This document shows, one piece after another, positions 1,563-27,439 of a DNA stretch of 64,000 nucleotides. The translations under genes and the position numbers were made by a program. The notes beneath the pieces were generated by a model, which was not told the DNA's origin, made no database searches, and worked only from the letters and a program-made list of their open reading frames with translations. This DNA comes from Heptranchias perlo. Lineage: Eukaryota. The stretch covers positions 50,654,001-50,718,000 of the forward strand of contig NC_090344.1 of the NCBI RefSeq assembly GCF_035084215.1, in the 5' to 3' direction. How positions within the stretch are numbered: the stretch's first letter is position 1; every line of letters starts with the position of its first letter.

Positions 1563-4061
1563 AAGAAGAATTGCGTCCAATTTCAGCAAAATTAACAGAA
1601 GCAGGTGCTCCACCTGGTTCCAAACTTTGTGTCTCAGCATGGCGGCAGGAACCTTCTGCACAGCTCAACAAACACAACACTGTACAGTCAGCACTATCTA
1701 ACCCTACACATCACTCCAGTATCCATTCCGTCACTTAGTGTACATGGTTCAGTTAGTGACATATTAACAGTAACGGGACAGACACTCACTCCGTGCATTT
1801 CCCTTCTCCACTTGTATTCATTTACTTTTCCGATTTCTCCCTTGTAATCAGACATAACTGCATTTCAAATTTTCTTTTAATGAATAATTTTTTTTGCCGA
1901 AATCTCCAATTACAACCCATGTGACAGGAAACAGGACAATGGTTGTTACAGATGTGCATTGTGCTTGCACTTCAAGGCACCATGCTGTGGACTGACCGGA
2001 TACAGTTCAGCATCCACAATCCTCCATGTAGCGAGTTCCGGATCTCAGCCTAGCAGTGCGAGGGAGACGGTGAGTGGAAGCCAACTGGATTACCCTGAAC
2101 CGTTCTCACACACCTCTGAGCTGCCGGTCAACAGTGCAATTGACGGAGGCCTGGGATAGGGATCTGTCCTCTCAGCCTAAGAATGGTGCATGGCATGGAG
2201 GATCTAAACAGATGGGAGAAATAAAAAATTAAAAACGAAAAATTGATCATGAAGGTAATCACTCCTTTAAATTCATTGTCTCAGCACTTTAGTAAGTTCT
2301 GGAATTCCTGCAAATCCCATCAAATTCCAGAACCTGCATATCTGCTGGGATGATGGGCAGGGGAGGAGGCATAGAAGGGAGTGAGCCTTCTACTGTGACA
2401 AATCTATACTCCAGCTTTGTTTTTCAAGCAGGACAAAGTGACGCTGGAAATGTCTGCTTGGCAGATAATGTTCTGGTCAGAGTTTATTTCCAACTATTTA
2501 AAAACTTGGCAGAATTTAAAAAGCAATTGTTAATTACAAGTTTTGCAATGTTTGACAATGGGGATTAAAAACAATTTCAATTAAAATAAACTGCACAATG
2601 CAAAAATCAATTCATCACCACTTCACATTTACAGTGTTGCATATCACACACCACCACAGAACAGAAATTTCAGTTGATAGCAGGGCAAAAATAAGTGCAT
2701 TAAATCAGAACTGCAGGTAGACTAAAGCCAAAACCCCACTACAACTGTTAAAAACTTGGCCAGGTCCTATTCCATACAGCAATCCCTAACATCAGATCTA
2801 CTTTACCTGGTTAAATGTAGTAAGGAAAGCCTAGTGCTCCTTTTAACGTTAAACTCTCTGGGAAGAAAATCTTTGTATTTTAGTTCTCAATGGGGTGGGG
2901 GAAAGGACCATTGGTTCTGAACAGTCTCCTGGTACTGGCTTCTTTGGATGATGCATTTTAAAGCTAAGCTCAAAGCTCCGTATTAGCTGTTACAAAGAGG
3001 TGGGGAATATCAGCTTGGTGCTTTCAGATTTTGAAAAAAAAAATAGAAATTTAACCCATTTAATATGGCAATGATTTTTGTTTTATCATGACTGGTTATA
3101 TTACTAATGATCATCCATAAAAACTAGTATTGTACATAAAAAAAATATTAATTCTACCAGTTTTTCTGACTTTGTGCAATCAAAAGATTTTTTTTAAAAA
3201 AAGGTTCCAAGCACACATTCAGTACCACTGCCAGCTTGTAGTCTTCTGTACAAGCAAAATGAGGGGTGGAGGAAAGCACTTCATAAGTAAGGATTGATAA
3301 AAGTCCATTTATTCAGTCCATTGAGCTCAGCCCAATTCATGACTATACTTCAACACACTTAAGCTAAGGTCCCCTTTTAAGCAGCTCGCAGAGATCCCTG
3401 AATGAGCCCCATTGCAACAATCAGGGAGGCGACAATTTGATCTCAAATCTCCTGCTAAGGAGGTCAACATGCTACTGAACCATCAGAGCTGCTGATTGGG
3501 CTAATCATTTTCCTTCTAATTTTCCTCCCTTTCCTCTCATCTTTCCATAGTGCTGACTTTAGCTGAGGTATAGTTCCACAGACATCCGCCACGGTCTGAT
3601 TCTTCACCCAAGTGGGATTCTTCATGTGTGAGCCTGGGTAGTGACTTCCAGCTAACTGTTCAAACATGGAGCCAAGCCTGATCCTGTCCTCATGCAACGT
3701 TCACACATATGCACTTTCAGCAGGAGTCATTAGATAGCCATCAGGAGCAGGAACCCTGACTGATTTTCACATCCTTAGCCCACAGAAGCACAAGAGTAAC
3801 TGTAACATCCTCACTCAGAATAGATTGGGTACTGAAGCTAGGACCTCCTAGTCCGTACGGTTCAGTATCACATGGTATATTTATCCTCAAATAGGCTGCA
3901 GTTTCATCTAAAAAGTTAATACACTTACTTTTTGCCCTGGATCACTGTTCAAGAAGCATTTTGTTCACAACTGAATACCTGTTTGTGCCACGAGAGGTTT
4001 AAACCTTCGACTGCGTCAGTCCCTGCAATTCTTAAATTGTTATTAAAGCTCTCAAGTACCA

Positions 4062-4283
4062 TTACTGAGACGTGGGGTTATCAGACTTGCTCTCCTGGCT
4101 TGATGGCGGTTTACTGTTCCAAGGACTGCTATTCCCCAAGGCTGGCAAGTTACGGAAGTCGTCCTCGTCATCGATACCATTGGCTGCATCATATTGGCCG
4201 TTCTCTAACCGCGTGATTAGGCGCTCATCCTCGTCACCGAACTCCCCACCCATTAGTGCTGGCTCACCCACAACCATAACGTC
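4062..4283 (-). CDS. LDB1-like: LDB-family gene, last coding exon (LIM-interaction domain, stop)
   Basis: DVMVVGEPALMGGEFGDEDERLITRLENGQYDAANGIDDED...SKPPSSQESKSDNPTSQ* matches the LDB1/2 LID and C-terminus; acceptor ttgtag at 4284-4285; TAA at 4062-4064. Confidence 0.96.
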   Translation of the reverse strand, partial: DVMVVGEPALMGGEFGDEDERLITRLENGQYDAANGIDDEDDFRNLPALGNSSPWNSKPPSSQESKSDNPTSQ

Positions 4284-7200
4284 CTACAATAAGTAGGTCG
4301 CATCGATTAAACCACAGCAAAGACAGTAGAAAAGAATTTTTCCGTTTCCTCACACTTCAACTCAGCACTGGTTAATGCATTTTCCTTGAATATTACCCAG
4401 TGATTCTGTACATCTGGCTGGAATGGGAGGACCAGAGCCAGAGTTTCTGCCTCAGTTTGGTTCTATTTCTACAGGGACAAATTGAAGTCCGACTGATTTT
4501 TGTTGTTAAATGCCTAAATTAGTAGCATGCAGTTTTTAAATATACCAATCAGCTACTCCATAGTGTTTTCAGTGCCTGAGTTAACTAACCCTGAAAAGGG
4601 CTGAAGACGGTTTAATTTGCACCAATTTAATTTCAAATTTACCTCTGCGCCCGCTTCATTCAGAGGGAAAGTGCTGCGAGGAGCTATTGTATGGGAGGCT
4701 AAGCAGCTCTAGCAGTAGATCACCAGACTCCAGGCAGAGGGCCATAGTTTGCATCACAGGCGTGACCGATGATCACACTCGCCTCTCCTCCACAGTCAGG
4801 TTTACGACTGTGCTGCTAGTAGAGCACTTTACGATGGCAACAGCTCTGACAGGGAGGAAAGTTTGGGAAGACAAATCTCATAACAAATCCGACACAAGTG
4901 TGCAGCACAGATTTTGCCACTTGCTTTGCTGATGGAGGCAACATGGGATTAAGTTTGAGCAACTGGAAACCCTACAGAGAAGAAAGTCAAAGAATATGTG
5001 GTCAAATGTAAAAGATTCTGCCAATGGGCAGTTTAATGAACTGCTAACATTTCCATTTACTTGTCAATGTCCTTAACTTTGTACTCATATTAGTGAAGTG
5101 ACAATGTTATGCTAGAATGAGACACACGACCATTTAGGAACTGGTGCATTGAGATGAGAACTTGGTATTTTGAAGTTAAAACTCAGTTTACAAAAATTTA
5201 CGAATATTCACATCAGGTAAGATTGGGAAGCAGGCATGATTGCAGCCCACACTGCCTTCGATATACAAGAGCATACGGTGGGCGAGATTACAGTCCATGC
5301 CACCTACAGGCAGCAAGACTGTGAATTAGTCACAGTTCTTGTCTACACTGTCCAGAGTTGCAAAAGTGGCCATGATTCCTGTCCACGTTCGCTGACCTAC
5401 TTTAGTATGCAGTGGGTATAATTCGTGTCTACCCCGCCTATGGCAAGAATGGGCAGTGGGGGCAAGGTTCCTCTTTCTAATGCCTATAACAGACAACAGC
5501 TCAGAACGGACACAATTCTTGTCCACATCATCTACAGCAGACAAGAGCATGCAATGGGCACGATTCCAGTCCATTCCCTCTTCACTAGCAGGATTGTCCT
5601 TCTTTGCTCCAGTGCCAGGCCTACAGTGCTTACGCAATGGTGAAGCATCTGTTGGTTTTCACCCTTACAGAGACCACATGTGCCCTACCTTCCTCTTTTT
5701 GTTCCTTTGGTATCTGAATCTTGGTGCATGTACTGGGTTTTACGTCCATGAGACCATGGGAATGGAAAACAATCTTGTTCACCAATGATGTTTTACTTTT
5801 CATTTCCAACCCACTTTGGCAGACAGTGAGCAGTTTAATGTTCTGTCAGGGTTTAAAGTGGCTCAGGCATTTCACTCCCCAAACTTAAAAGCTATTTTCA
5901 GACAGGAGGCAATATATTGGCTTTAAACAGCTTGGACCCCAGGTCTCTCATAGCTTGCAGTCCTTGGCTAAACCCAAATATCCTCCTTCCCCATTCAACT
6001 AAAAAAGGATATGACCCGAAAGATCATGCTGTCATTGTTATTTGCTGGGCATTGTTAGTGTTCTTAGTATTCTATTCAATGTTTGCAAATTCTCCCCATT
6101 CAATTACACAGGGTATTTTCAGGGAGTCAGATCCAGAATATTATTCTTGTTCTGTGGCTAATATATCTTAAGGACCTGCAGCTTTTCAACATAGAAGAGC
6201 ACTGATGTTATTAAAATGCCTTTTCTAATAATGAGCAGCTCCGATCTGTTTCATAAGTAAATGGATCTAACTGCAGCCAAGCTTTCTTTCCTGTTGATTA
6301 TTGGTGCCCCACATTTACTGCAGTTGTTGATCTGTATCACTCTGTGTTGATATAACCCTTTTGGTCCATCAATATTTCTGATTGTCCCTTCCTTGTTGAG
6401 GGCAGGACAGGACAGGACAAAGGTTTAAATCTCTAAACAAAATTACCCATCAGGTATTATGACTCAATTTGGGATGCTTGTGCACACAAAGTGACCCAGA
6501 TCAACATGCAAAACTTGAATAAACTCGTCAAATGATGGACAACCCCTCTCCCCATATTGCAGCAACTTTTCTGGATGTCTGTTTCGGGTGTGGTGGGGGA
6601 CAGGTTTAAGAGGTTAGTATCTTGCGCCCATCATAGCAGCATGCTGGCAATTCCTCTAAAACGTGACCATCTTCTTTACACTCACACTGTTCAATGTGCA
6701 TTTGTTAAATTAATTTGTGTATGGTGGTGGGGGGGGGGGGCGGCGAGGGGGCTGTCTCGTTTGGGCTTGGGGTGTCAGTGATCTGACCATTATCCCTAAA
6801 CTGACAGGACTCTTTTATAAAACTCAACTCTGCTTCCTTTGGGCAAGGTTATGTCAGTGACTGATTTGTACTCCCGTACCTGGTCTTCCTCTGAGGGAGC
6901 ACTGTGCGGCTACTTATGCTCATGGGTGTGGTGGAAGTTTCCCCTGATTATACTATGTAAAGTCAAACAGGTATAAATCTCAACAGCTGTAAAAAGCCAC
7001 ATCGTACATAATGTTTGATGATTGTCCATTGTGAAGTAAAAAGTTTTTAAAAAGCAAAGCGTTACTGTTTAGGATGTGCTCACTGCACTAATTCCTGTCC
7101 AAATATGACTTGAAAACTATACAACCTCAATCTTGTACAAAATTTATAGAGTACAGATATTTTGTTTCTTTCCTTGCCCTAACTTCTAACATTTTTTGAA

Positions 7201-10200
7201 ACGCTACATAACCTGAGCTAGTACAGTTTATTGTTGAAATCAGACAAGACAAAATCTGACGTTAGAATAACCCAGGCCTCAAAATTACTACTGAACAACC
7301 AATTATAACATTTCTCAATTTTAAAGGGGTTTATTACAAAAGAAAAGAACATTAGCATTAAAAGTCTGATCTTCAAAGTGCAGAGTTAAAAGTTGGTGGG
7401 TTTTCCAGACCGTTTATATTGTTCTTCACAATCTTTCTGTCCCATTACCAAACCAGGCAGGGATAGAATCAAAGGCTGGTTTGATTCAAGGAATAGGACT
7501 CGTCAGATTAGATTCTGGGAAATCCTAATAGTATTAATATGTTGTTTCTTTTAAATAGGTTTAAGCCCCTCGATATCTAAGACACGGAGGATTAGACGAA
7601 AACCAATCTTCTGAGTTTTCAAAGCAGTCCGCCTCCTCCCCAGCTGCCGAGACCCACTTATTGTCTAATAACGTTCTACTTTGGCCTAGACAGGGTGTGG
7701 GGGCAGGGTTATAATCCCAAACCCTTTTAGCCCAGCAAGTTACTCTCAGGTTGAACCTGCAAGAGAAGAGGGCACTCTTAATCAAAAGTTCGTCTTGCCA
7801 AACTCATTCTCTACTTACTCGCCACATGCAAATTTTCAGCAGAGATTTTTTTGGATTTTTTTTTTAAAAAGATGAATTCTACTAGAATTTTAAAAAAAAT
7901 GTCATATCAGATCTAACAAAAAAATGCAGAAACCTGCTGTGTTCTTTAGCAGAGCATCAGTGTAATTAGCTACGTTTCCACACGCCCTGCAGTGAAGTCC
8001 TAAACATGACCACACCTCAATCAATCAATCCAAAAGCATTGTGGCCAACATTCCACGGGATGCAGAATATACTGCAGAACCAATATGGGGGGAGGGTCTT
8101 TATCAATAAAACTTATTCTCCAATGCATGGTACACTGAACAATTTTCATTACTACCATATCAACCTCAGTACCGAAGAGTAAGTATTAATTACTCAAGAG
8201 GTTGAGCTGCAGTGCACTGTTGATCCAAAGTAGAGGCAGTGGCATTACTGTTACTTGAAAAACTAATTCTTTCTCAGTGATAAAATTACCATTTATTGGT
8301 AGTCAATTTTATCGAAGCCTTCAGTCGTACAAACAGTGCTTTTCTCATCAGGTTTTGGAAGAGGAAGAGGTTGGAAATTCTTCTCTCATGACACAAGAAA
8401 CAAAAGTTACCGATCTTAATCCACAGATGAACTATAAAGCAGTAACTAGTCAACGATCCATTAACCTCATTGCAAGCTGAGTGTGCGAGCAGCACTGCCA
8501 CCCAAATCAGAGTCTGGGACTCACTAACTTCCCTCTAAACTGAGCTACCACCAGTAAGACAGCAGCCACTGCTCTGAATATTCAGCCTACCTATCACCCT
8601 CACACTGGGTCAAACCATCAAATTAATTTAACTGGTCTTCACAAAATGGGGACCACAAAACTATAACCATTTTCAAACTTTAGTACACACCTCCAATATC
8701 ACCTCATATATCCAGATATGAAAGAGATCCCCCACAGGGGCTGTGCTTCAAGACATGAAAAAACATCACTGGGACAATTCAGATTGAAGAGGGAGATTGC
8801 GACTGAGGTTCAATATGGCAATATGAAGTGGCGGTTCAGCACTGCTTTAAGGGAAATCTCAGCAAGTACTTGAGATTTTCAGTAAGGGTGAAAATCTCAG
8901 ACTGTGTGCATCCATAATTCAAGAATCTCAAGATGTAAAGAACACAGCAGGTCAGTACTGCACTGAAAACAGACACCTCCACAAACCCTACTCCCCACAC
9001 CCTAAAACAGTCAGGGTTAGAACTACAGTCAAATCAACTGCATCACAGAGAGGAAAGCGTTAGAGTGAAAGGTAAAGAGTAATAAAAGAGCTCACTGACA
9101 GCCTCAAAAGGACAGCTGCCCTCTACAATCACAAACAGTTTGATGTACTCAAGATGGCAACTACATCCAAAGCACAATAAGCAGTTTGCTGAATATAATG
9201 GCCATCAGAAAGCATCTAAAAGGTGTCAAAATATTTTCTTGATAGACTATTGGCCAGTTAGATTCCCCATTCTTTCATCTAAGAATGGGAATACAGACAG
9301 AAAGAGCTCAAACTCCAACCCCACGCACGAACCCAGCAGACCCGTTTACACAGCACTCACACTACATTTGCAGGACTCATTTCCTGCTTTTGAACTCAAC
9401 TCCAAAAGTTTTCGAAGTTTGTTACTTATTTTCCAAAGGGAATTGGTTACTGAGTTAGGGTTGGATTTCTAGGGAGAAGATTTAAGGTTACAGTACCATA
9501 GGTTTTAACTGGAATATAAAAACACTCTTTATTCATCTGGATGTTTTATCACTGTGGTTAGTCTCAATGGTTTCTCCAGCAGATTCTTTGCTGGCTTTCC
9601 TGTCTTGACCATCTAAGCTGATCTAAAACACCAGGGTGTCCTTGCTGAGCTCCATGCACCCAGGAAATTAACCAAGATCCTCAACCTCACTTCAAAAAAC
9701 AAATCACTCCGTGGCCTAGCCCCATCCCCATTTCAAAGATCTTCCCTAATTGCACATCTCACTCACGCCCTCCCCTCCTGCGACACCAGCTTATTCCTCA
9801 TTCCCACAATCGGTGGTTCTTCCTTCAGCCACTGGAACGCCCTCGCCCACCACCTTCATCTTGTTCTCTGCCTTCCAAAAAAGTTTACGTCCCTTCTTTT
9901 TGATTATACCTTCACACCCCCTGAATCTATTTTTCCCCTTTCTTTATTGCAGTGTTTAGCGCTCTGTGACATCTATGCTTGAGGAGTGCGATAGAAATGG
10001 AAGTTGTTTATGCTGTTCAGACATTTATTTCCATAAGCATTGTCGTAAGGTCCTCAAAAAGTAAAAGTATTAACAATATTAGATCAAGGTGTGCCTGAGA
10101 GGAGGCCACAGATTGCTGGGTTAATATTTATATAGAGGACACGTATGGAGCAGCATTACTGGCAAAATAACATCTCTTGTGCCCCACCTGTCACTGACAG

Positions 10201-10796
10201 TCCAAATCCACTGCTCCTGCCCATTAAGCACATCTGGGTCCATTGGGCCAATCAACTTTTATTATTGTGGGTAACATTGGTGCAGCATCATCGGTGAGAT
10301 GTTGACAGTAGCCAGTGTTAAGACAATGGATTGTTCTGTTTTCTAATCCCAGTTGTCATGGGCAGTCGGCGGCCACTATTCCTGCTCCCACTCTGTTGTG
10401 GATGATGCCATTTATGAGGATGCTCCTTTGGTAGTTCTCCCCTTAGTATGGGAGAAGTGTCAACTGGAGCGCGCTTTATAGCAGGACCACTTTTATTTAT
10501 CTGGACCGCAATTAACTGCGGGTAAAACTAGTCCGCTGGACATGCACTTCCTTGCCACTATCAAAAGAAAATATGAGAGGAAAATTCCCTCAATCTAGTC
10601 AAAGGCATAAAGCATTAGATGACCTCCAGTGAGAAATGAACACCATTCCTATGATCCAATAGATATGATTACTTGTAGACTGCCCCGATTGGGAACTTCA
10701 GGCTCTCCCAAAGTCTGTGTAAAGAGGCCAGCTGGTTTCGCAATGTTAGTGACAGTCAAAGACAGTGATTAAATCAATATAGAGAAGGATGCTTAC

Positions 10797-10948
10797 AGGT
10801 ACCTGAGTTGCCAGACTGAAGCCTGTGGCAGGGCTAGTCTTTTTCTTATTGCCCCCACTGCTGTTACTGGCTGGCCCTGCACTGGACGTGTTGCCTCCAG
10901 ACTGTTTCCTCTTTCGCCGCTTGGCTGTTGGAGGTCTGACAGGTTCAG
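10797..10948 (-). CDS. LDB1-like: LDB-family gene, coding exon 9 (NLS)
   Basis: (A)EPVRPPTAKRRKRKQSGG...KKKTSPATGFSLATQVP; acceptor cacag; tandem donors at 10802 and 10796; 152 nt, phase 1 to 0. Confidence 0.94.
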
Positions 10949-11473
10949 CTGTGTGAAAATAAGATGAAAGTAAAGCTGAACAATAACTTTGGAAACTGTA
11001 AATTGCAACAGACATCGGTCCCTCTATGTTCTCACAAAGTGTTTAAATATGGAAGCACATCACACAGGTATACTCCGGCTTCGTCCCAGCAGCCGTTCTT
11101 CACGCGTGAGCTTGAAAAATCAGAAGTGACTGACTAAGCCCTCACTTGGAGTGCAAAATTCTTCTCAACAACAATGCTCACTTTTCCCCATAATTAATGA
11201 CTCACTAATGAAATTAGGGGAACAAAGTTTTGAAGCAAGATTTCTAAAAATGCTATTTCATTAGTAGGTCATGAATTCGCGATGAACAGACGTTCTCCCT
11301 TTTTTTTGTTAAAATAGGAATTTTAAGTCCTGGTGTTCATATGTGCCCACTTTCAGCAAAAGGGTCAGAGATGATTAGAAGTAAAAACCCTCCCCATTTC
11401 CAACAGGTGCCACCTTACCTTGCCTGGCCTGTACTGTACCATGTATGGTCTGTGTTGTCCTGGGTCATACAGA

Positions 11474-12110
11474 GCTGAGTCTGGCCCGTGTTGTAGTATG
11501 TAACATAGCCCTGGGTCTGGCCCGTGTTGTAGTATGTAACATAGCCCTGGGTCTGGCCCATGTTGTAGTATGTAACATAGCCCTGGGTCTGGCCCGTGTT
11601 GTAGTATGTAACATAGCCCTGGGTCTGGCCCGTGTTGTAGTATGTTACATAGCCCTGGGTCTGGCCCGTGTTGTAGTATGTAACATAGCCCTGGGTCTGG
11701 CCCGTGTTGTAGTATGTTACATAGCCCTGGGTCTGGCCCATGTTGTAGTATGTAACATAGCCCTGGGTCTGGCCCGTGTTGTAGTATGTAACATAGCCCT
11801 GAGTCTGGCCCGTGTTGTAGTATGTTACATAGCCCTGAGTCTGGCCCATGTTGTAGTATGTAACATAGCCCTGGGTCTGGCCCGTGTTGTAGTATGTAAC
11901 ATAGCCCTGGGTCTGGCCCGTGTTGTAGTATGTTACATAGCCCTGGGTCTGGCCCGTGTTGAAGTATGTAACATAGCCCTGGGTCTGGCCCGTGTTGTAG
12001 TATGTTACATAGCCCTGAGTCTGGCCCATGTTGTAGTATGTAACATAGCCCTGAGTCTGGCCCATGTTGTAGTATGTAACATAGCCCTGGGTCTGGCCTG
12101 TGTTGCAGTA
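11474..12110. repeat. 36-bp minisatellite, ~17-18 copies, in an LDB intron
   Basis: Unit ccctgggtctggcccgtgttgtagtatgtaacatag with few variants; produces long ORFs on both strands. Confidence 0.97.
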
Positions 12111-12277
12111 GGACACAGTATGGTTTTCAGGGTTGGACTCTACTGTGCTTTCAGCTGTAATATGGTTGGAAATGTTATTGATCTCTGGCACTTCAGGAGA
12201 ATAAAAGCTCCTTTTTGCAGATTATCCCGCCTATCAGCTGCATCTTACAGACCATCTCTGTACCCGCAGCCTCTTAC

Positions 12278-12401
12278 CGGGAGGAGCCACCATCCGCTGC
12301 CACTTCTGAAACAGGCAGGTCTTCAGACAGTCTCGAGGGCTCAGGTTATAGGTTTTGTGTCTTGACATCAGTTCCTGCATTGGTTCCAAAATGACACAAA
12401 G
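12278..12401 (-). CDS. LDB1-like: LDB-family gene, coding exon 8 (LCCD)
   Basis: LCVILEPMQELMSRHKTYNLSPRDCLKTCLFQKWQRMVAPP; AG/GTAAG boundaries; 124 nt. Confidence 0.96.
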
Positions 12402-13801
12402 CTAGTTTGAGGGAAAGGAAAAAAAAGAAATCACACAAATCAGCCCAAGATTCAGGTTTTTAGGTCCAAGTGTTTGAACGGTTAACCTGTCTGATCCTTG
12501 AACTCAGAAATGTGCCCTAAATAATCCTTAGCTGCAGCTTTTATTGTTTCACTCCAATTTCATCACATATTGCACTCATGTCAGGGAAATATTTTTTGCA
12601 CACTGGAATGGACAGGTCTGGAAAGATTACTGTAATCCCTCTGGGTGGTCCCAAGATTTGAAAGATCCAATACAATACTCTGGTCATATATCCCTCAATC
12701 ATCTCACTGCCAAAAAATTATCCAACTCCCTCTTGAATATGTTCACTCCTTTGTTCTAAGTACTCCTTTTTATACAAGAAAATTCTCTTCCCAGGTATTT
12801 TTTTGCCACCAACGGAAACCCTCAAGCAATGTCCTCCCTCAGAGGCCACTGTGATTATAATAACAGGGGATGTCCCAGAATGGTTCCATTGTAACGAGCA
12901 GACGGTGTTATCAGACTTGAATGAGGATTACTGTGTAGCATTCCCAGCCCATAGCATGCCCAGAGTGGGGTGAGTGCAGTGTTCAGGCCAGTTGGAAGTC
13001 ACAAATCCACTATTTGCAGTGGAGCCACTTCAGTGCAAATGGAATTGCTCGCTCCACCTGACATTACCAGAGCAGTCTGTCAGGGAGAGAGACTCTAATC
13101 GAGAGATCTTCACAGCAACGATAAAATTGACATTTAAAAAAAATGAAACAGTCTAGTAAGGAAATTAATAATATTCTATGCAAAAAAGGGAGAGGCCTTT
13201 GCATAAAAGGTACTGCCCCTTGATTTTCCTTAACCTTCAATCTTATGTTTAGCACATTGCTCCACCCAACCCCAATGCTCTCTTCTCTAGCCCTGGGTCT
13301 GGCCCGTGTTGCAGTTCTTTGTTCTATTTTCTATTTTCTTTCTTTACTTCAGTCCCCAACCATGGCTTATTCTGTAATCAGAACAAAAGACAGGCAATTG
13401 AGCTGTTTCCCAGTTATTGACCGCCAAACCTGAACTAGGCACCAGAAGGCGTGCCACTACAGGACCAAAATAATGAATGAGTTTATGCCAGTGCTGAAGA
13501 AGTCATTTTCAGGCACTCTCAGGTTCGGTAGAGCACAGTTAGATGCAGAGTAAAGCTCCCTCGATGCTGTCCCATCAAAGACTGTCAGATTAGATACAGT
13601 ATGGCTAGATACAGGGAATAACTGCCTTTTCATTGACTTTTCAAAAGAATAACAGCTGTCCTTAAAGCCACACAATATTATCAATTTAGTTAATGCCAGT
13701 TTTGTACCAACTCAATACAAAAAAAAAGAGAAGAGTGCTCAAACAAGGTGGATTCATCTTTATTTACAGACTTGGGTTCCCTGTGCAGACATCATACTTA
13801 C

Positions 13802-13885
13802 TCTGAGGTAGTTAAGGGTGAAGTTTGTGAGGCCAGAGCGGGTGATACTGTTGGATAACTGCTCCAACATTGGAGGATCCTGGGC
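13802..13885 (-). CDS. LDB1-like: LDB-family gene, coding exon 7
   Basis: AQDPPMLEQLSNSITRSGLTNFTLNYLR; tttttag acceptor, gtaagt donor; 84 nt. Confidence 0.95.
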
Positions 13886-14870
13886 CTAAAAAAAAGTAAA
13901 AAGGACTAAGGAATGGGTTTTGTAGGGACATAAAATCATTAACTGTGCTACTCAGTAATACTGCAAATAAATACTAGCTACATAGAAAAATATGTTCCTA
14001 CTTTCATCCCTCAAAATGCTTTTTCAGTACCGTCAAGCTCATCAAATCCTTCATAAAACAGGCCAACTTTATAATTACAAGCAATGTCCAAGTCTGACAT
14101 GCTTTTATTACATTTAGTCATGCTCTGTTCAAGTACGCAAAGATGAATTAATTCATCTTACACAAACAACAATATTGTGCAGGGAGATCAGAATAATATA
14201 ATATGTTGATTGTAACAATAACACACGGCGTTGCTTTCCCTCTGTCTATTCGAAGAGATGGATTTGTATGGGACTTTGGGAGCCTGTGTACTTCAATGAT
14301 TGCTCAAACCTCAACCCATAGTCCAGTACCTCTGTACAGGTTTCACCAAGCACCCAGCCCACACTCCTATGTGGAAGTGTTGAACCACCTCTCACACACT
14401 CATATCTCTGATCACCTGGCAGTCATTTTGTGAGTGGAACATGCCTGTATTTTGCCTCCTGGTTTGCAACCAGCTAATTGGCAACAGACGCCATTACCAA
14501 TTTGCTAGACGATGTATTTCATCCTACAAGATAGCAAAAATTCACAAAAGAAAAAGGTAAAGGATAATATATATAAACTTTTGCAGCTTAGAAAGAACAC
14601 AAATTAAACAGAACTTATGTATTTAGGGAGTTTTTCCTGGTGCCCAGAAATTCAATTGCTGCCAATTACAAAAGAACAAACCGCGTTACAATGCCAGAAT
14701 TCGACCTTTTATGCAGTGAGTACGGGGGTCGGGGTCGGGGAGCCATATCCTTGCTGGTCAGTCACTAAAAGCTTCAAGGCCTGCATTCAGGACATCTGTT
14801 CACGCATCGATATGTGGCTGAGAGAGAATAATCAGTTGTGATCACTTTTAAAGAAAAATCAGATACTCAC

Positions 14871-14993
14871 ATGTGTTGCAAGGATACTGCGTGAGAGCAG
14901 CTCGCGATTTTGTCTGATATTAAAATGCCAATTCTTTATACGCATCAGATCATCGAAAGTGAACTCCAGGTAGAGACGGCCTTCTGTACATAC
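14871..14993 (-). CDS. LDB1-like: LDB-family gene, coding exon 6 (dimerisation domain)
   Basis: VCTEGRLYLEFTFDDLMRIKNWHFNIRQNRELLSRSILATH; ctcag/gtgagt; 123 nt. Confidence 0.95.
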
Positions 14994-15145
14994 CTGAGAC
15001 AACAAACAAGTACAAGCTGAATAATCTCTCCTGTCTTTATTTTACTGATGCTTTGTTTTTTGAGTTTCCTCTCTTTTGCCTCCTAAATTTCAAATATGCC
15101 ATTTACACACTGATCTCCCACCCTACTTCCTTGCTGTGTTGAAAT

Positions 15146-15566
15146 AAAGACTGGGGCTCTTTTCTCTACGAAAGAGAAGACCGAGGGGTGACCTGATAGC
15201 GGTCTTTAAGATTATGGAAGGGTTCGATAGGGTATATGTACAGAAGATGTTTTCACTTGCAGGGGAGACCAGACTAGGGACCATAAATATAAGAAGGTCA
15301 CTAACGAATCCAATAGGGAATTCAGGAGAAACTTCTTCACCCAGAGAGTGGTAAGAATGTGGAACTTGCTACCACAAGGAGTAGTTGAGGCAACTTGCAT
15401 AGATGCATTTAAGGGGAAGCTAGATCAACACATGAGGGAGAAAAGAATAGAAGGATATATTGATAGGGTTAGATGAAGAAGGTGGGAGCGAGGAGGCTCA
15501 CCTGGAGCATAAACACCGGCATGGACCTGTTGGGCCGAATGGCCTGCTTCTGTGCCGTACATTCTT
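15146..15566 (+). mobile_element. CR1 LINE 3' fragment
   Basis: RGDLI...NFFTQRVVRMWN motif and 3' GGGCCGAATGGCCT. Confidence 0.85.
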
Positions 15567-15715
15567 TGAAGGCCAAAGAGCAAAAATTCATGAGAAAAAA
15601 GCAAGAAAAATGCCTGCTCTACTGGTTTTTGGTTCAACTGCTAGTTGACAGAGACTAGCAGGAAATCAAAGCGTCTACATCCAATCTACAATTCACTACA
15701 CGGGATATTTCCTAC

Positions 15716-15888
15716 CTTGGTGAAGATGGGCTTGCTATGCAGTGTGATCATGCTGCACAGATCACAGTCCAGTATCACCAAATTGCCGTGGAACGATTCC
15801 TTTGAGTGTTTCAGGTTAAAATAAAGATCCGTTGCTCCGCCATCAAAGATACTACGGAAATACCGAGGGATTAGGGTCCGGCCAATTG
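15716..15888 (-). CDS. LDB1-like: LDB-family gene, coding exon 5 (dimerisation domain)
   Basis: (T)IGRTLIPRYFRSIFDGGATDLYFNLKHSKESFHGNLVILDCDLCSMITLHSKPIFTK; 173 nt, phase 1 to 0. Confidence 0.95.
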
Positions 15889-16333
15889 CTTTGTAGAAAT
15901 AGAAAAAAACACATTAAATTTCAAAACTTTGACAAGAGTTTTATAATACAATTGAACTTTAAACATCTAAGCATTTTGTAGAGTGTAGATTATTCCATCT
16001 GCTAAAGGAATAAAATTACTCCTCTGACTTTAGTAAATAACTCAGAAGAGGGAGTTTTACTGTGTTAATATGTACAATTTACTGATGTACCAAATTGGGT
16101 ACACAGGATATTTATGTACCATACTGGGCACGAGACTATCTCTCCACATTACCCTGCAAAGTTTATTAGTGTCCCCTCTAAGTTATTATTTTTTGTCGCT
16201 CAAAAAGAATGGCAGAGTCTTTCTTGGCCTATTACTTCAGCACATGTTTTTATAACTAATGAAAGTTGTTGTACGAGCGCTGCAGTTGGTTTGAAACGTG
16301 CGTAGACTGTGATGGGGAACAGTACCAACTCAC

Positions 16334-16436
16334 TGTATCTCTTTGGTCCATCTTCCAGGCAGCAAGCCACAGTTAACACTGCATCATCTTCAAAAAATTC
16401 AGTGGTGAAAGCGTCCCACCAAAGATTGTCACACTC
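16334..16436 (-). CDS. LDB1-like: LDB-family gene, coding exon 4
   Basis: ECDNLWWDAFTTEFFEDDAVLTVACCLEDGPKRY; ctcag/gtgagt; 103 nt. Confidence 0.96.
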
Positions 16437-17690
16437 CTGAGAGAAAAATCAAATTGACAAAAGAGTCACAAGACAATGTGCTCGCCAGAGAATAAAACCC
16501 TCAACACCGGCTGAACTATGGAGCCCAATAATAAGTTAATCTTCATCTAATGAAGTAAAACACAATAAAGACACAGAGAGACAGCGAGGCATGCGGAGTG
16601 TTTTCACCTCATCTACAATGACAGTCAGAATCAGCGCGCAATTGAATTCTGTCGGCATCTCCGTTGCAGTATTTGTCTTGGTTCCAAATAAAATCTTACA
16701 CTCACATGCTGCATTTTGTGCATCAGATGTTGTACTGTGTGCATGCGTGTATAACAAAATGTTCAACCATCCCATTCCCTATTGCCCTTACGTTGGTACT
16801 TCTCAAGTTATGGAAGCTATCTCCCAAACTATCCATCACCCTACAAGCTACTACAGTAGTGATGCTACAATTGGCTTCAGTGTGCCCAGGTTTGGGGAGC
16901 GGGAGTGGGCAGCCTGTGTATGTTTGATTGTGGACTTTAGATAAGGGTACAATCAGGCTCTGTACATGATGCCTACACTTATTGTCTATGCTAGCAACTG
17001 AATAAGGCCACTAGGGGGAGGCAGCAGAAAGCGACAGCCATTAAGGAACCATACCTTCAGGAAGAGAGGGGAGGCGAGAATATCGAACAAAAAATAAAAC
17101 AAAATTTATAGCTTAACCCATAATTGCCACCACATCCACAAACTGTAAGCAGCCGGCTATCCCAATAGCTCAGCAGGTTTCTAGTGAGTAGCTGAAATAT
17201 ACAAACAAAAAGGGCCTCATGTTTGGTCCCTGGTCTGTACTGAGTTAACTCATCTGATGACGCAACAGGCTTCATCCCTGGGTTTCAAGCAGGGGGAAAA
17301 GAAAAATCAGTTAGGGTCTCCAATCTTGATCACTACTCAGTTTGCACCCCTCACAGCCTGGCGACACTAAATGACAATGCTCACCTCTGAATATGGGTAA
17401 GGTGCTGAAGGGGAAAATGTCCATTGTGGAACTATGCCCCAGAAAAAAAGTTAATGCCTTCAGGAGAGGCCCATTCTCTATTGCCCTTATCAACCAGAAG
17501 ATGCTGGTTAAATCATGCAATCTCGACAATTTCAGTATCCCACTTCTCCAGATGTTCACTTTGATATTTACAACATTGCATTCAGCAGAAAACAATGTTC
17601 CAGCTCTAAGCTCGTGATTACTCTAGGAGTGAAGTTCTGAAACTATCTATACTTTAAACTCTGTTGACTAATCGGCCTGAAATTACCCAC

Positions 17691-17766
17691 CTCTGTCCAG
17701 TTCTGGAGACGTTTGTTGAGCTCATAGATCCTGTACTCAGGCTGTGACATATAAGGCGTGTGTCTT
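17691..17766 (-). CDS. LDB1-like: LDB-family gene, coding exon 3
   Basis: RHTPYMSQPEYRIYELNKRLQNWTE; ttcag/gtgggt; 76 nt, phase 2 to 0. Confidence 0.95.
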
Positions 17767-18333
17767 CTGAAATTGCAGGAATACATTAGTAATCAAATTA
17801 AACGAGGCAATCGGATCAGTGGCACATCCCCAGAATATGTGACATCCACTACAGAAACATATCTGCTGTTGAACACGGTCACTTACAACTACAGAATTAT
17901 AGCAACAGCTTGATAATGGTCTCAACACTATAATCTACTGTAAAACCAGCTGTGCATTTGGCATTTCTGTATGATCTGGAAACCAATGGTAAGATTTTTA
18001 CATTAGTATCACCAATACGCCAAGATACACACTATTTACAGTAAATACACAACTGAGGTGCTTATACAGACGCTACAGAGATGGCCTATAACCATCAGTT
18101 AGTTCACCAGCAAAGGGATCAGCTTCCTCTGGAAATCATCGACTGTTCTCCCAGAATTGCATTTGAAACATTTTATTGGTAGGTGCAAAAGCATAGATTG
18201 TAAAATTCTTATAATTATCATAAAAAGGTTATTGTTGAGGCCAGCAATATAGACAGCATGTAACTAATTGAAAGGTCCCGTCTACAGGAGATACAATAAA
18301 GACACCAAAACAACAGAACCAAAAACTCCTTAC

Positions 18334-18378
18334 CCAATAGTGGGCTCCGGATACGTGGGAGGATAAGACGGGGTCGGA
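18334..18378 (-). CDS. LDB1-like: LDB-family gene, coding exon 2 (45-nt mini-exon)
   Basis: PTPSYPPTYPEPTIG resembles LDB1 PTPMYPPTYLEPGIG; ttgtag/gtaagg; phase 2 to 2. Confidence 0.92.
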
Positions 18379-20322
18379 CTACAAATGAAGATGAAAGCGG
18401 TGATGTTAATTTCTGCTACGCTCAATATCAATCCTTTGTACAGTATTTTTCATTTAAAGCTAACATTCTCTGCTCTCCCTGGCTCGTGCAATACTACAAT
18501 ACTGAGAACAGGTGGGCATCCCTCTCTTATGAGCTGTGACTGTGCTGGTCTGAACTGGCCGTTCGGAGGTGCCTGGGACACCTCAGGGATGACTATGGGA
18601 AAGGACATGGCTTCCTCGTGGATACTTCCCCACAGTCATCTGCAACTCCATAGTTTGGTAGATTAAAGTTGCAAACCTATGAATGTTACCACACACTGGC
18701 ACCTCAATGCTCCGTGCCACTCTTGCAATGCTTTTTATCCCAATGTTCAATGTAAAGAAGAAACAGTAACCAAGGGACACGAAGGATGCACTATAAATGC
18801 GTGTAATAAGGGGAAAAATCTCAGTGACAGAAACTGGCCATCAAAAATTCAACACTAAGCTCTGATTACACAGCATTTCATCTTTGTTTATGAATTAAAA
18901 ACCCCGTTTTCTATTCACACATGCTACCTCCAAATTCTACACTGCCCTCTTATGGTGGCATGGGATCTGGAAGGGTCTGGCCCACAGTTGCAATCTACAT
19001 ACTGATGATCCAACTGAATTTTCTCAACTGGTAGAAGGAGGGTGTCTCAAAATTCCTCTCCCAGGTGCAGCGCTAAGCTGAGAACCAAATATTAAGAGTG
19101 GACCAGAATTCAAACATCATTCATAGCATGTATTCCAGACCCTCTAAACAGAATCCAAATATTTTGCTATTGCAGTTGCTAAGTAACTCCGGGCTTGGAT
19201 ACCTTACAACACACCAGAATAACCACCAATTCATCAAATTCAGTAATCAGCACAAGTGTAAACCACACACAAACTGAGTTTTAACTGTTAATCTGTAATG
19301 AACACCAGAGTAAATGTTCTACATGATCAGAAGCCTGTACAGATTGTGACTACAGGGACTGCCAAGCATAGAAAACTTTGTATCCCAAGTCACACCGTAT
19401 TACACAATTTTTAGATACAGTAAGTGACCAGTATGAAATCCTGCTGCTCAATGTCTCATCCTTAAATGATTTCAACACACTCATTGCAATCACATCATTC
19501 AACCATCATGGTACAAATCAAATACAGTCCCACATCCAGCATTCGCCCATCACAACACGCATTCAGTCCAGCCCATAAGCAGCCAGCTCGCCGCACAATC
19601 TGTTCAACAAATCTGCTCAAGTGCAACACTCACTCCATCCTGATATGACAGACTTGTTCTCCTCAACAGTCCCAATTCAACTAACGTGCAACAAAAACAC
19701 AGCTGCTCCCATTAAAAAGAAGCCTTCCCTAACCCATATCACAGCCTGGCATCTAACTCAGCAACTCAAATCAGGGAAGCACAAAACATTAATTCACACT
19801 TTTCTGCAACATATAGTTTCCAAAGAAGATTTCGTATTACCCTTCCTGGTCTAAACATAGGAACAGGAGGCCAGTCAGGCCCTCGAAGAAACACCAAAAA
19901 GTGTCAGCTGCAGTTAGACCCTAATTTTTCACCTGTGACTTGCAATCTCACTTCAAAAAGAGGATGCGTTTGTGCAACAACTGAACATTGTTTTGCAAAC
20001 ATCTCTGGGTCACATGGTATAACAATATATGGTACTCTTTGCTTTTATGTCTGGGCAATAGAACCCATTCAGAGGGCTGAGCAACTCCTTCCAAAGGTGC
20101 TGATCATCCAAAGATCCTGGGCTTGAATCCCAACCTTGACTGAAATGCACACTGCTTCAGTTTACAGCTAAGTTTCACTAGCTTGCGTTAGAAGCTATAT
20201 AGTATTCTTCTGGAAGACACGCCATCTAAGGGGGCTTAGGTGCCTTTAATAGGGAAAAAGCAGAAGGAAACTAGATTATAATGCAGCAACGGAATGCGCC
20301 TCTGCACGAGCAGTATACCCAC

Positions 20323-20342
20323 CCGAGGTCTCGGTCCAGCAT
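20323..20342 (-). CDS. LDB1-like: LDB-family gene, first coding segment (MLDRDLG); exon likely begins at 20422
   Basis: GCC-ATG context; MLDRDLG resembles LDB1 MLDRDVG; donor gtgggt at 20322; acceptor ttgcag at 20423-20424. Summed CDS is 1122 nt (373 aa plus stop) with all phases consistent. Confidence 0.9.
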
Positions 20343-20869
20343 GGCTCCCTCAGTCTCAGGAATGCACTTGAGGTTAGAATAATACTGAAATGTATTCAGT
20401 CTGGATACCTTAAGTAGGTAATCTGCAACAAGACAGAGAAATAAACTATTAGGCAAACTGCAAGAATTCACTCACTGATTCAACCATCATACATATTCTC
20501 TAACCTCTATCTGACAAGGCAACAGGATTTCCAAAGATTCATCAACGGGAATGCTGTCCTCAATTTATGACCTGTGCATTGCCATGACAACAGCATCACT
20601 ACCCCTTGCAGTCCCATGATAACACCATTCTCAATTTCCAACCTCTGTACAATCCTAGGGAAACAATGATCTTAACCTCTGTACTTCCCACAGGAACTAG
20701 TATTCCCAATCTTAGACTTTCAGGTAACCACCATTCTCTATCTCCCACCAGCATCCCATGGTGCCTACCTCACCCTCACCTACAAACATACAAAAGAAGA
20801 TGAGACCAGCTGATACATTAGGCCTATCCCAATGAGACATAGTGCATTCTACGCTTTCAACCCAGACCA

Positions 20870-21491
20870 GTTAGGAAGGCGAATGGTATGTTGGCCTTCA
20901 TTGCAAGAGGATTTGAGTACAGGACCAGGGATGTCTTACTGCAGTTATACAGGACCTTTGAGAGACCACATCTGGAGTATTGTGAGCAGTTTTGGTCTCC
21001 TTATCTGAGGAAGGATGTCCTTGCCATGGAGGGAGTGCAACGAAGGTTTACCAGACTGATTCCTGGGATGACAGGACTGACGTATGAGGAGAGATTGGGT
21101 CGACTAGGCCTGTATTCACTAGAGTTTAGAAGAATGAGAGGTGATCTCATCGAAACATATAAAATTCTAATAGACTAGACAGACTAGATGCAGGGAGGAT
21201 GGTCCTGATGGCTGGGGAGTCCAGAACCAGGGGTCACAGTCTCAGGATACGGGGAATGCCATTTAGAACCGAGATGAGGAGAAATTTCTTCACTCGGAGG
21301 GTGGTGAACCTGTGGAATTCTCTACCACAGAAGGCAGTTGAGGCCAAGTGCTAAAGGGATTAAGGGATAGGGGGAAAAAGCGGGAACAGGGTACTGAGTT
21401 GGACGATCAGCCATGATCATTTTGAATGGCGGAGCGGGCCCGAAGGGCCGAATGGCCTACTCTTGCTCCTATTTTCTATGTTTCTATGTTT
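20870..21491 (+). mobile_element. CR1 LINE 3' fragment
   Basis: MLAFIARGFEYR...RPHLEYCEQFWSP...RGDLIETYKI; TTTCTATG tail. Confidence 0.92.
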
Positions 21492-21669
21492 CAGTCATGC
21501 AGACTACTGGGAGGCAAAAAGAGCAGATAAGTTCAAGATCCAGGGTTGCTCATGTATAACATGCTTGCCTCAAACAGAGAAGTTTTTCAGTTCTTGGTTA
21601 GACCACTAAATGCAGCAGTCCTGCTCATGGTGTTCCCATGATGGTGTTAATAAGAGAATTTGGGGGCTT

Positions 21670-22725
21670 TTGACTCAGTGACGATGAAGGAACAGAAGTT
21701 TACATGCAAGCCAGGATGATGTGCGACTTGGAAGTGATGGCTTTTCCATGATCTTGCTGCTCTTGTTCTCCCAGGTGATAGAGGTCAGGGCGGCTGGGAG
21801 GTGCCGTTGAAGTAAGTTTGGTGAGTTGCTGCAGGGCATCCAATAGACAGTACATACTGCAGCCACAGTACATCAGCTATGGATGGGATGGGATGGATAT
21901 GGCGTTTAGTGGCAGGGACACCAATCAAGTAGACTGCCTTGAATGTTGGTGCAGTACCCATCCAAGCAAGTAGTGAGTACTTCATCACATTGCTGCATTG
22001 AGCCTTGTAAATGGCAGAGAGGCTTTGAAGGGTGACTTATTGCAGAGTACCCTGCTCTCATTGTCATGGTGTGACATGGCTGGTCTAGTTAAGCTTCTGC
22101 TTAATGGTGACTCCCAGCATGTTGATGGTGGGGCACACAGCAGTGCAGTTCAGGTACCACTGAAGTTCAGGGGAGGTGGTTGGGCTTTTTCTTGTCACAG
22201 GTGGTCACTGCCTGGCACTTAAGTGGCACGAATATTACCTACCACTGGTCAGCTCAAGCCTGGATGTTATCCAAGACCTGCTGCAGGCTGGCATGGGCAG
22301 CTTCCTTATCAGAGGAGTTGTGAATGGAGTGGAACACTGTAAAATCATCAGCGAATAATCGCACGCCTGACCTCTTGACAGATGAAGATGAAGCAGTTGA
22401 AGATGGCTGGGCCTAGGACATTGCCCTGAGGAACTCCTACAGCGATGTCCTGGGGCTATGACGATTGGCCTTTGACAACCACAACTTTCTCCCTTGTGTC
22501 AGGTATGACTCCACGCACTGGAGGGTTTTCCCTTTGTTTTTCTAGGGCTCCTCAATGTCATACTTAGTCAAGTGCTGCTTTGATGTTGAGGGCAGTTATT
22601 CTGACATCTTTTCCGCATTCAGCTCTTGTGTCCAAGTCACAATCAAGGCTGTCACGAGGTCTAGAGCCAAGTGGTTCTGGTGGAATCCGAAATGAAGGTT
22701 GGCGAGGTTATCGGTGAGTAAGAAG
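21670..22725 (-). mobile_element. Old degenerate non-LTR retrotransposon, same family as 43468-44277
   Basis: Reverse strand shares AAVCT / CSNSP / YS.LAWM motifs with that copy; frameshifted. Confidence 0.75.
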
Positions 22726-23559
22726 TAATCTTCTTTAAGTAACCAAGTAATCAATCCTCAGGATAAAAGTAATCCCTTTTTTCAACACAATGACATTCAC
22801 TGCTTCCCTTCAGTAGGTAACTATGTTCCATTATTATCCCCTGACCAGCCAGGGATCTGATCCCAATACTTTGCCAATGCCATCGCTTACCAAAGCAGCT
22901 GACAGATTTGTATCTCTATTGGTTCAGAAATACCTCCCAAACTGAGCACCATTCCAACAAAGCATCCACAATCAAAGCCCATGCGGGAGGGGGAAGCACC
23001 TCTCTGGAGCATAGCATCACTGACCCTCAGGCCGTGGGCTGAGGTGAGAGAGGCACTCTAATCTCCTCTCTACTGCTTCCCCCTTTCACACACTTACTGC
23101 GTTCTTTCCGTCAATCTCATTTGTTCCCACAGGTTTCCTACTCCTCCTTGCCTCACATTTTCTCCAGTCACTGTATCTCTCAGATTATTTCTAGTCCTCT
23201 CTCCCCAATTCCCTCAGGTCGTTCTCAGCTTCTCTCTTCCACCACCCCTCTCCCATTACTCCCTCAATTTATTCCAGGTCTCTCTCCCCACACCGTTCCC
23301 TCGATTTATTCCCAGTCTCTCTCCTCCCATTCCCTCGGGTCATTCCTGGTCTTTCTCTCTCTCTCTCCCCATTCCCTCGGGTCATTCCTCGTCTCTCTCT
23401 CTCTCCCTATTCCCTCGAGTCATTCCTGGTCTCTCTCCCCCAGTTTCATCAGGTTATTCCTGGTCCCTTGGGATATTCCAGGTCTCTCTCCTCTCGTTCC
23501 CTTGGGTTATTCTTGGTCTTTCTCTCTCTTTCTCTCTCCTGCCACCACCCCCCAGTTCC

Positions 23560-24118
23560 ATCAGGTTATTCCTGGTTTCCCTCAGGTTATTCCCCGTTTT
23601 CCGTGGGTTATTACTGTTTCTCTCAGATTATTCGCAGTTTCCATCAGATTATTCCCAGTTTTCCCCAGGTTATTCCCGGGTTTCTACAGAATATTTCCGG
23701 TTTCCCTCTGATTATTCCCTGTTTTCCATGGGATATTCCCGTTCTCCCTCAGATTATTCATGGTATTCTGCGGGTTATTCCCAGTTTCCCTCAGATTATT
23801 CCCGGTTTTCCGCGCGATATTCCCAGTTTCCCTCAGATTATTCCCGGTTTTCCATGGGTTATTCCCCGTTTCCCTCAGATTATTCCCGGTTTTCTGCGCG
23901 ATATTCCCGGTTTCCCTCAGATTATTCCCGGTTTTCCACGGGTTATTCCCGGTTTATTCCCAGTTTCCCTCAGATTATTCCCGGTTTTCCACGGTTTATT
24001 CCCAGTTTCCCTCAGATTATTCCCGGTTTTCCACGGTTTATTCCCAGTTTCCCTCAGATTATTCCCGGTTTTCCACGGTTTATTCCCAGTTTCCCTCAGA
24101 TTATTCCCGGTTTTCCGC
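23560..24118. repeat. ~21/42-bp pyrimidine-rich minisatellite at the start of LDB intron 1
   Basis: ttattcccggttttccacggt + ttattcccagtttccctcaga; regular near 24118, decaying leftward to ~23150. Confidence 0.92.
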
Positions 24119-24119
24119 A

Positions 24120-24400
24120 CTCACCGCTCGATCCTCCCGAACTCGACGCCAGACCAACATCCGCCGGAAGTGAGGAGCCCGTGTCTGCCGTGCGCGCGCG
24201 CGCGCGCTCCCGGCCTGACTGCGCGCTCCCGGGCTGAGCGAGGACGAGCTTCGATGTGGGCGCGCATCTGTTAATCTTCGCTAAATCGGTGCCCCCCCAA
24301 AAAAAAATTGACCGCCACCGACAGGCGTGAACGCGCGCGCGCGCCTCCGCGATGTGCGGCTCCCGGGGCCTCCCGCCTGTGGCTGCTGGAAGCAGAAGCA
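24120..24400. promoter_or_regulatory. CpG-rich promoter of the LDB gene
   Basis: Dense CpG, two (CG)n runs (~24192-24207, ~24332-24344), ETS site. Confidence 0.7.
24125..24175 (-). other. Probable non-coding exon 1 of the LDB gene (5' end uncertain)
   Basis: Donor GCG|gtgagt at 24124 at the edge of a CpG-rich patch; ETS motif CCGGAAGT at 24164-24171. Confidence 0.6.
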
Positions 24401-27260: not shown

Positions 27261-27439
27261 ACCGGATCACACAGCACAGCACACGGATATAACGGGCAGG
27301 AAAGGACTGGCTGGAGCTTCCTGCCCTCCCCCAGGAGAGGCAATAAAACCAGGGCTAATAAGGGAATGTAAAATTCATCTCTGACCCCCCCCCCTCCTCA
27401 AACAATCGGGCGCAGTCCAGGACTTCACATTGTACGTGA

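Follow-up and report, generated by a model that had tools for sequence, protein, structure and literature searches.

A third LDB gene, distinct from LDB1 and LDB2, in the genome of Heptranchias perlo

The vertebrate LDB family has so far been treated as two genes, LDB1 and LDB2 (PMC2446394, supplement). A 64,000-nucleotide stretch of the Heptranchias perlo genome (RefSeq assembly GCF_035084215.1, contig NC_090344.1, forward-strand positions 50,654,001 to 50,718,000; hereafter the window, on the chromosome that we label C23) carries an LDB gene on its minus strand, and the locus raises the question of whether this gene is LDB1 or LDB2 in another place or a third member of the family. A first-pass annotation, made from the letters of the window, had suggested a candidate third paralogue, perhaps a genome-duplication copy that cartilaginous fishes retained and mammals lost. 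As described below, a third copy is indeed present, and we consider it very probable that the window LDB is an intact sister of LDB1, likely from the second round of whole-genome duplication (2R; the first is 1R), retained throughout the sharks, rays and chimaeras but likely lost from bony vertebrates, and that it is predicted to serve as a Chip/LDB scaffold.

Three LDB loci in one genome

We searched the H. perlo genome with the full window LDB protein, and 24 of the 25 matches fell on three chromosomes, C23, C24 and C1, the remaining match being a weak one to a linker (E = 0.145). A search with the last exon found the same three loci, namely the window on C23, C24:4.06-4.09 Mb and C1:108.04-108.30 Mb; protein queries were used here in place of a Pfam PF01803 search of the genome, which gave 1 exon only. 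Over residues 23-249, the C24 gene is identical to human LDB1 at 216 of 227 positions, and the C1 gene, which also matches shark LDB2 records, is identical to mammalian LDB2 at 216 of 227. Over the same residues the window LDB scores 187/227 against LDB1 and 183/227 against LDB2, with LDB1 and LDB2 themselves at 188/227, and it is 79.8% identical to the LDB1 of the same genome. Because the genome also has a true LDB1, on C24, and a true LDB2, on C1, each among its usual neighbors, the window LDB is confirmed as a third copy and is neither a translocated LDB1 nor a translocated LDB2. The simple translocation that the first-pass annotation had set against its own proposal, in which the protein nests within LDB1 or LDB2 and is the sole copy of that gene, fails on both counts.

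Species distribution and origin of the third gene

The protein searches covered the best 120 of 381 hits, the best 120 of 906 hits and the best 150 of 1226 representatives, together with 15 of the 105 members of the main cluster. With the most diagnostic exon as the query (best 120 of 381), matches of 88-98% came only from shark and chimaera records, after which identity fell to 74%; the cluster members listed add skates and rays, and orthologues annotated 'LDB1-like' occur in at least 18 named shark, ray and chimaera species. Further, within a set of 532 LDB-like proteins, which contains many isoforms and was scored at 13 diagnostic sites chosen from the window LDB group itself, 33 proteins carry 7-13 of the 13 diagnostic residues and all are chondrichthyan, whereas none of the remaining 499 has more than 4. 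Eleven other species gave a match to the PROM2-like prominin gene that follows the window LDB (see below); in 9 of them the LDB orthologue and this prominin lie on contigs of equal length (91 kb in one case), which is indirect evidence of linkage; of the other two species, one record has no length and one is a mismatch.

Over the core, the window LDB is identical to its horn shark orthologue at 223/227 positions, to that of skate at 220/226 and to that of chimaera at 206/227; the corresponding value for LDB2 against chimaera is 224/227. In sequencing runs of relatives that we presume, by guess, to be RNA (X5, X6 and X9), 2 of 3 coding differences listed for X6 and 16 of 17 listed for X9 were synonymous, although 42 further rows of the table lie outside the count, which tempers the reading. 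On these comparisons the window LDB is evidently under constraint, yet evolving faster than its paralogues.

Among the records compared, those from bichir, sturgeon, paddlefish, lungfish, coelacanth and caecilian are LDB1 or LDB2. Bony fishes and land vertebrates have likely lost the third LDB, a wider loss than the mammalian one first proposed. Two points limit the case for so wide a loss: the absence of a third LDB from bony-vertebrate records applies to the best-ranked matches of protein searches, no bony genome having been scanned, and the LDB1 proteins of gar, bowfin and coelacanth lie outside the comparison set. The best surviving alternative draws on this same coverage and holds that the third ohnologue also survives, overlooked or strongly diverged, in some slow-evolving bony vertebrates such as gar, bowfin, coelacanth or lungfish. 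It is helped by the report that, among differentially kept ohnologues, sharing with coelacanth (17) or with ray-finned fish (24) is more frequent than restriction to chondrichthyans (19) (PMC10115646). However, all 33 diagnostic-positive proteins are chondrichthyan, and the bony-vertebrate records just listed fall to LDB1 or LDB2; we therefore regard this alternative as unlikely.

We next consider how the third copy arose. A genome search for prominins gave three true genes, each on the same strand as, and downstream of, one LDB (3/3), with all other matches being repeats. The order on C24 is OGA, LDB1, PROM and HPS6, so that the C24 gene occupies the HPS6/OGA position, and on C1 it is LDB2, TAPT1 and PROM, so that the C1 gene occupies the TAPT1-PROM position; on C23 the order is NPC1L1, YKT6, the window LDB, PROM (PROM2-like) and KCNIP (KCNIP3-like). 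The first-pass annotation had pointed to the synteny around YKT6, but the informative neighbor is the downstream prominin. Relatives' records name the C23 prominin prominin-2(-like), and the KCNIP exon has calsenilin (KCNIP3) as its top PDB match. Further along C23 are an FGF gene (34.65 Mb) adjoining a nucleoplasmin (NPM) gene (34.74 Mb), a LOXL gene (38.6 Mb), two hexokinases, one with a single domain and the other with two, and a CAMK2, all from families with other members on C24, C1 or C14. The fourth Lbx/NK paralogon is defined by Fgf17-Npm2, Loxl2, Prom2 and Kcnip3, is described as the sister of paralogon 1, and has a blank Ldb slot, only Ldb1 and Ldb2 groups having been found in bony vertebrates (PMC2446394). 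C23, marked by its FGF-NPM pair and LOXL gene, appears to correspond to this fourth paralogon. Consistent with this, a chicken-6 type segment (1 alpha) is paired with a chicken-22 type segment (1 beta) in SI Table 3 of PMC10115646, the text of which reports faster evolution and more gene loss on beta segments. An LDB-PROM pair on all three chromosomes, with PROM2-like, KCNIP3-like, FGF-NPM and LOXL genes on C23, is what a 2R ohnologue in a paralogous block should present. In the scenario that we favor, 1R would have turned an ancestral LDB-prominin pair into the LDB2 ancestor and a common ancestor of LDB1 and the window LDB; 2R would then have given LDB1 on the chicken-6-type chromosome and the window LDB on the chicken-22-type chromosome, and the 2R partner of LDB2 would have been lost.

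Several points weigh against a genome-doubling origin. The name prominin-2 comes from automatic annotation, and outside sharks the C23 prominin is closest to gecko 'prominin-1-A-like' proteins, at 57-60%. The FGF, NPM, LOXL, hexokinase and CAMK2 genes were placed by family search, not orthology, and no nucleoplasmin was found next to the C24 FGF. Moreover, the cyclostome branches take no firm position in either of the trees described below, so the timing of 1R versus 2R rests on synteny, and a gene tree cannot show whether an old copy came from genome doubling or from a segmental event, the case for doubling resting on chromosome-level paralogy. A segmental duplication that copied the LDB1-prominin block early, in the jawed-vertebrate stem and outside genome doubling, predicts the same topology and profits from markers placed by family only, but the paralogous families of C23 extend across 16 Mb, with counterparts on C24 and C1 that match the published 2R pair, and we consider such an event very unlikely.

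The main maximum-likelihood tree comprised 52 rows and 346 columns, with 3 rows dropped beforehand (two isoforms without the LIM-interaction domain (LID) and one partial sequence). The window LDB group formed a clade of 7 (100/100) that is sister to 16 LDB1 proteins of sharks, rays and bony vertebrates (100/99), with LDB2 apart (98/96); the stem branch of the window LDB group is 0.17 compared with 0.089 for LDB1. A second tree of 34 rows, to which two crinoids and a lamprey partial sequence had been added, kept the position sister to LDB1 (99/99) and placed the duplication after the crinoid split (97/96), although it holds no amphioxus or tunicate row. The window LDB is thus an orthologue of neither LDB1 nor LDB2, and the grouping of shark with bony LDB1 to its exclusion makes the duplication older than the shark/bony split. 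This bears on the proposal of a fast-evolving LDB1 duplicate that arose within cartilaginous fishes only, which would explain a gene found only there (among best-ranked matches) and nearer to LDB1 than to LDB2. Besides that grouping, an approximately unbiased (AU) test rejected a clade of the window LDB with shark LDB1 only (p = 0.0025), the window LDB keeps 8 ancestral states lost in all LDB1, and its position is paralogous, not tandem; the proposal is largely refuted and, in our judgment, extremely unlikely.

The first-pass annotation had also described the protein as a mosaic of LDB1-type and LDB2-type residues. The pattern itself holds, with 13 LDB1-type and 12 LDB2-type sites interleaved and no blocks, but its cause lies elsewhere: with polarity taken from arthropod outgroups, 9 of the LDB1-type sites are shared-derived and 3 ancestral, and 8 of the LDB2-type sites are ancestral and 3 apparently derived, as expected for a sister of LDB1. 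Nor are the MLDRD start and the short (45-nt) second exon LDB1-specific, as had been supposed, because both also occur in LDB2 records of sharks and skates and in the partial LDB of lamprey. A true LDB1/LDB2 recombinant, to which the interleaved sites might seem to point, or a translocated LDB1 or LDB2, is scarcely credible given this polarity, the LDB1 and LDB2 genes elsewhere with their own neighbors and an AU test that rejected grouping with LDB2 (p = 0.0057). Separately, the lamprey partial sequence (P0434, 'LDB1-like'), which begins with MLDRD, is divergent, has a very long branch and obtained no placement.

Structure of the window LDB and its surroundings

On the minus strand of the window, at 4062-20342, the LDB motifs noticed at first were confirmed, among them LQNWTEECDNL, which crosses a splice junction and is seen only once the exons are joined. 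The 10 coding exons (20, 45, 76, 103, 173, 123, 84, 124, 146 and 222 nt) are all bounded by GT-AG with consistent phases, and the spliced frame of 371 amino acids plus stop gives a product identical, letter for letter, to database protein P0133, whose source label is 'LIM domain-binding protein 1-like', Heptranchias perlo (RefSeq, automatic name). The intact gene of 373 amino acids claimed initially is borne out as a form that uses a donor 6 nt further downstream and so adds VP, which orthologue P0127 also has. The sizes and phases of the first 8 coding exons agree with those of the C24 LDB1. The coding span is 16 kb, compared with more than 260 kb for LDB2 on C1. Table 1 gives the features of the gene and of its divergent neighbor.

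Table 1. Positions of the window LDB exons and of YKT6 (window coordinates)
Feature	Position	Strand	Evidence
5' untranslated exon 1 (upper end approximate)	24125..24260	-	donor GT at 24124; relative's spliced contig links to exon 2, loose end 20423
Exon 2, MLDRD start codon at 20342	20323..20422	-	sequence; spliced contig of run X6
45-nt PTP exon, absent from some orthologue isoforms	18334..18378	-	sequence, relatives' contigs, orthologue records
Coding exon RHTPY...NWTE, dimerisation domain begins	17691..17766	-	sequence, relatives' contigs
Coding exon ECDNL...KRY, with group-specific VAC (70-72)	16334..16436	-	sequence, relatives' contigs, residue comparison
Coding exon TIGRT...FTK, most diagnostic exon	15716..15888	-	sequence, protein search, relatives' contigs
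Coding exon VCTEG...ATH	14871..14993	-	sequence; exon's start found as loose end at 15713, runs X6 and X9
Coding exon AQDPP...YLR, dimerisation domain end and LCCD start	13802..13885	-	sequence
Coding exon LCVIL...APP (LCCD)	12278..12401	-	sequence, relatives' contigs
Coding exon bearing the KRRKRK nuclear localisation motif; alternative donor at +6 nt adds VP	10803..10948	-	sequence, relatives' contigs
Alternative last exon VQPESNLLG-stop, giving a 307-aa form without LIM-interaction domain	7727..7756	-	sequence; X5 contig covers 5481-7754
Main last exon, encoding the LIM-interaction domain (PF17916) and ending the frame	4062..4283	-	sequence, Pfam; X5 contig ends at acceptor
Second alternative last exon ILHAMHHS-stop, likewise without LIM-interaction domain	2177..2203	-	sequence
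YKT6, divergent neighbor; ATG 28734, stop 34082	26880..34082	+	best PDB match YKT6; Longin domain

The relatives' spliced contigs (X5, X6 and X9) contain 5 GT-AG junctions, all at predicted sites. The runs that hold the whole stretch (X1, X2, X3 and X4) listed no splice joint of the window LDB, the tables of X1, X2 and X4 being crowded by repeats, and run X3 had no exon cover within 15600-20600; we treat both results as neutral. The VQPESNLLG tail also occurs in ray and skate records P0121, P0129 and P0132, and the ILHAMHHS tail recurs in P0122, P0123, P0130 and P0131 and nearly so in P0003. In exon 1, an upstream ATG at 24160 opens a 20-codon upstream open reading frame that terminates in exon 2. 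The exon encoding the longer N terminus of LDB1 (KSFKLYSPKEPPNG, on C24) has a diverged counterpart at the window LDB, with no in-frame ATG seen upstream. Other features within the gene are a minisatellite (36-bp unit x17.7, 11475-12110) in the intron that separates coding exon 8 from coding exon 9, a 21/42-bp unit array (23556-24116) directly behind the exon 1 donor, and non-coding stretches upstream of the 45-nt exon that are conserved in relatives (18405-18800 and 19272-19317). One contig of run X9 passes from these stretches into the 45-nt exon, suggesting another 5' end.

The window LDB had been described as head-to-head with YKT6. The two genes are divergent, but loosely so: their GC/CpG-rich blocks are separate (~24.0-24.5 kb for LDB and ~26.5-27.2 kb for YKT6), and their first exons are ~2.7 kb apart, the YKT6 5' exon near 26880-26995 being inferred from its donor site only. 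In human, YKT6, GCK, CAMK2B and NPC1L1 lie together at 7p13. Much of the window beyond YKT6 (47571-52727 and 60599-64000) consists of reverse transcriptase fragments, presumably LINE-type judging by their motifs. A frame piece of a HAD-family hydrolase (PF13419, 26.9 bits) lies on the opposite strand inside the NPC1L1 span, at C23 ~50.744 Mb (L037:6493-6642, +).

At C23:50.40-50.44 Mb, minus strand (L082, L085 and L086), exons resemble a type I inositol 5-phosphatase, INPP5A-like, with a weak PF22669 match, and beside them lies a homeobox (L087:1153-1422, +) identified by Pfam as a homeodomain only; the INPP5A-like and NKX6-type labels are our assumption from their motifs. Because human INPP5A adjoins NKX6-2 at 10q26, this pair may represent another ohnologue retained in this C23 block. 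An intronless nucleoplasmin domain at C34:4574542-4574844 (L065) is unlike the C1, C14 and C23 copies and is possibly a retrocopy or a moved NPM3. The LDB2 chromosome, C1, also has a LOXL gene (3.36 Mb) and an FGF-nucleoplasmin pair (8.80-9.06 Mb), which fit the proposal that Loxl3 and Fgf24-Npm4 are part of the LDB2/PROM1 paralogon (PMC2446394). All three vertebrate prominin types are present in this one genome (C1, C23 and C24), each behind an LDB; tetrapods and teleosts reportedly lost different prominins (PMC2446394).

Predicted function and significance

The window LDB matches PF01803 (N-terminal dimerisation domain and LCCD) with 89.8 bits over residues 34-235 and PF17916 (LID) with 42.4 bits over residues 299-326; its LID is identical to that of LDB1 at 37 of 40 positions, and its match to PDB 6tyd is full-length (E = 2.9e-133). 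Every one of the 10 orthologue rows retains all 10 contact residues, namely those of the SSBP-facing patch (Y81, I83, L87 and R90; PMC6800368) and those for Pygo (R232, N237, N241, R244, L245 and I248; PMC10287724). Because these contact residues and the LID are kept, we predict with good confidence that the window LDB dimerises and binds SSBP, Pygo/ARID1 and LIM proteins as LDB1 does. It would dimerise via its N-terminal domain, use the hydrophobic patch together with the LCCD to bind SSBP dimers and form the Pygo/ARID1 NPF pocket, while its LID would bind LIM-homeodomain or LMO proteins and so link enhancers to promoters; the LID-less isoforms would dimerise without binding LIM proteins and may dampen or redirect such complexes. 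An AlphaFold model from a 24-row alignment had a mean pLDDT of 38 and was discarded as unusable, and the ESM Atlas gave generic LDB clusters only.

The window LDB group has 24 group-specific residues, including T327G in the LID and F72C, N116G, K192N and N193S at sites invariant in all other rows; these last four could alter function. LDB1 residues 173-192 are needed for activation, not looping (PMC4066399), and P173S, M179T and K192N fall within this segment, if 375-amino-acid numbering is assumed and with the clustering seen post hoc. A specialised role is hinted at by these 24 residues together with the two LID-less last exons, which are conserved. Because P173S, M179T, K192N and N193S lie in or beside the dimer apex, and because the LID-less exons are conserved, one may go further and suppose that cartilaginous fishes use this specialised third LDB in heterodimers with LDB1 (LDB1-LDBx) as a shark-specific looping/activation switch, lost in bony vertebrates; we consider this doubtful.

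Compared with LDB1 (NLI/CLIM2; PF01803 and PF17916), its sister group, the window LDB shares the layout of the first 8 coding exons, the SSBP and Pygo contacts and a downstream prominin, and differs in its chromosome and neighbors, its group-specific residues and its own LID-less last exons. With LDB2 (CLIM1) it shares domains, a downstream prominin and the ancestral P31, Y36, K139, T142, L155 and E188, and differs in core identity, in the joint clade rejected above and in the length of the locus. LDB3 (ZASP/Cypher) is alike in name only, being a PDZ-LIM protein unrelated to Chip/LDB (PMC2671401), and the name LDB3, already taken, is therefore unusable here. Our literature search, whose coverage excluded subscription journals and some supplements, found no publication on a third LDB, and 12 of the 24 supplementary files of PMC8455134 contain no LDB. 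The main text of PMC10115646 does not name LDB, and the part of its supplement searched has 'Ldb1-1' rows only; its list of 19 retained genes may include the window LDB. That paper describes wnt6b and cspg5, which show the pattern proposed here for the window LDB, with retention in cartilaginous fishes, loss from bony vertebrates and a place on a fast-evolving beta chromosome. The kind of event, an ohnologue kept only in cartilaginous fishes, is thus already known, and the surprise is moderate: the window LDB is a previously unnamed member of a known family, with its protein already in RefSeq as 'LDB1-like'.

One practical consequence is that, in data from sharks and skates, 'LDB1-like' matches do not represent LDB1. 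LDB1/2 double knock-outs serve as LDB-null cells (PMC6800368), and the third LDB offers a natural variant for probing which parts of the dimerisation domain tolerate change. Overall, the third LDB fills the blank Ldb slot of the fourth NK/Lbx paralogon and lends support to paralogons 1 and 4 as a pair, and it makes the ancestral LDB-prominin linkage visible three times in one genome.

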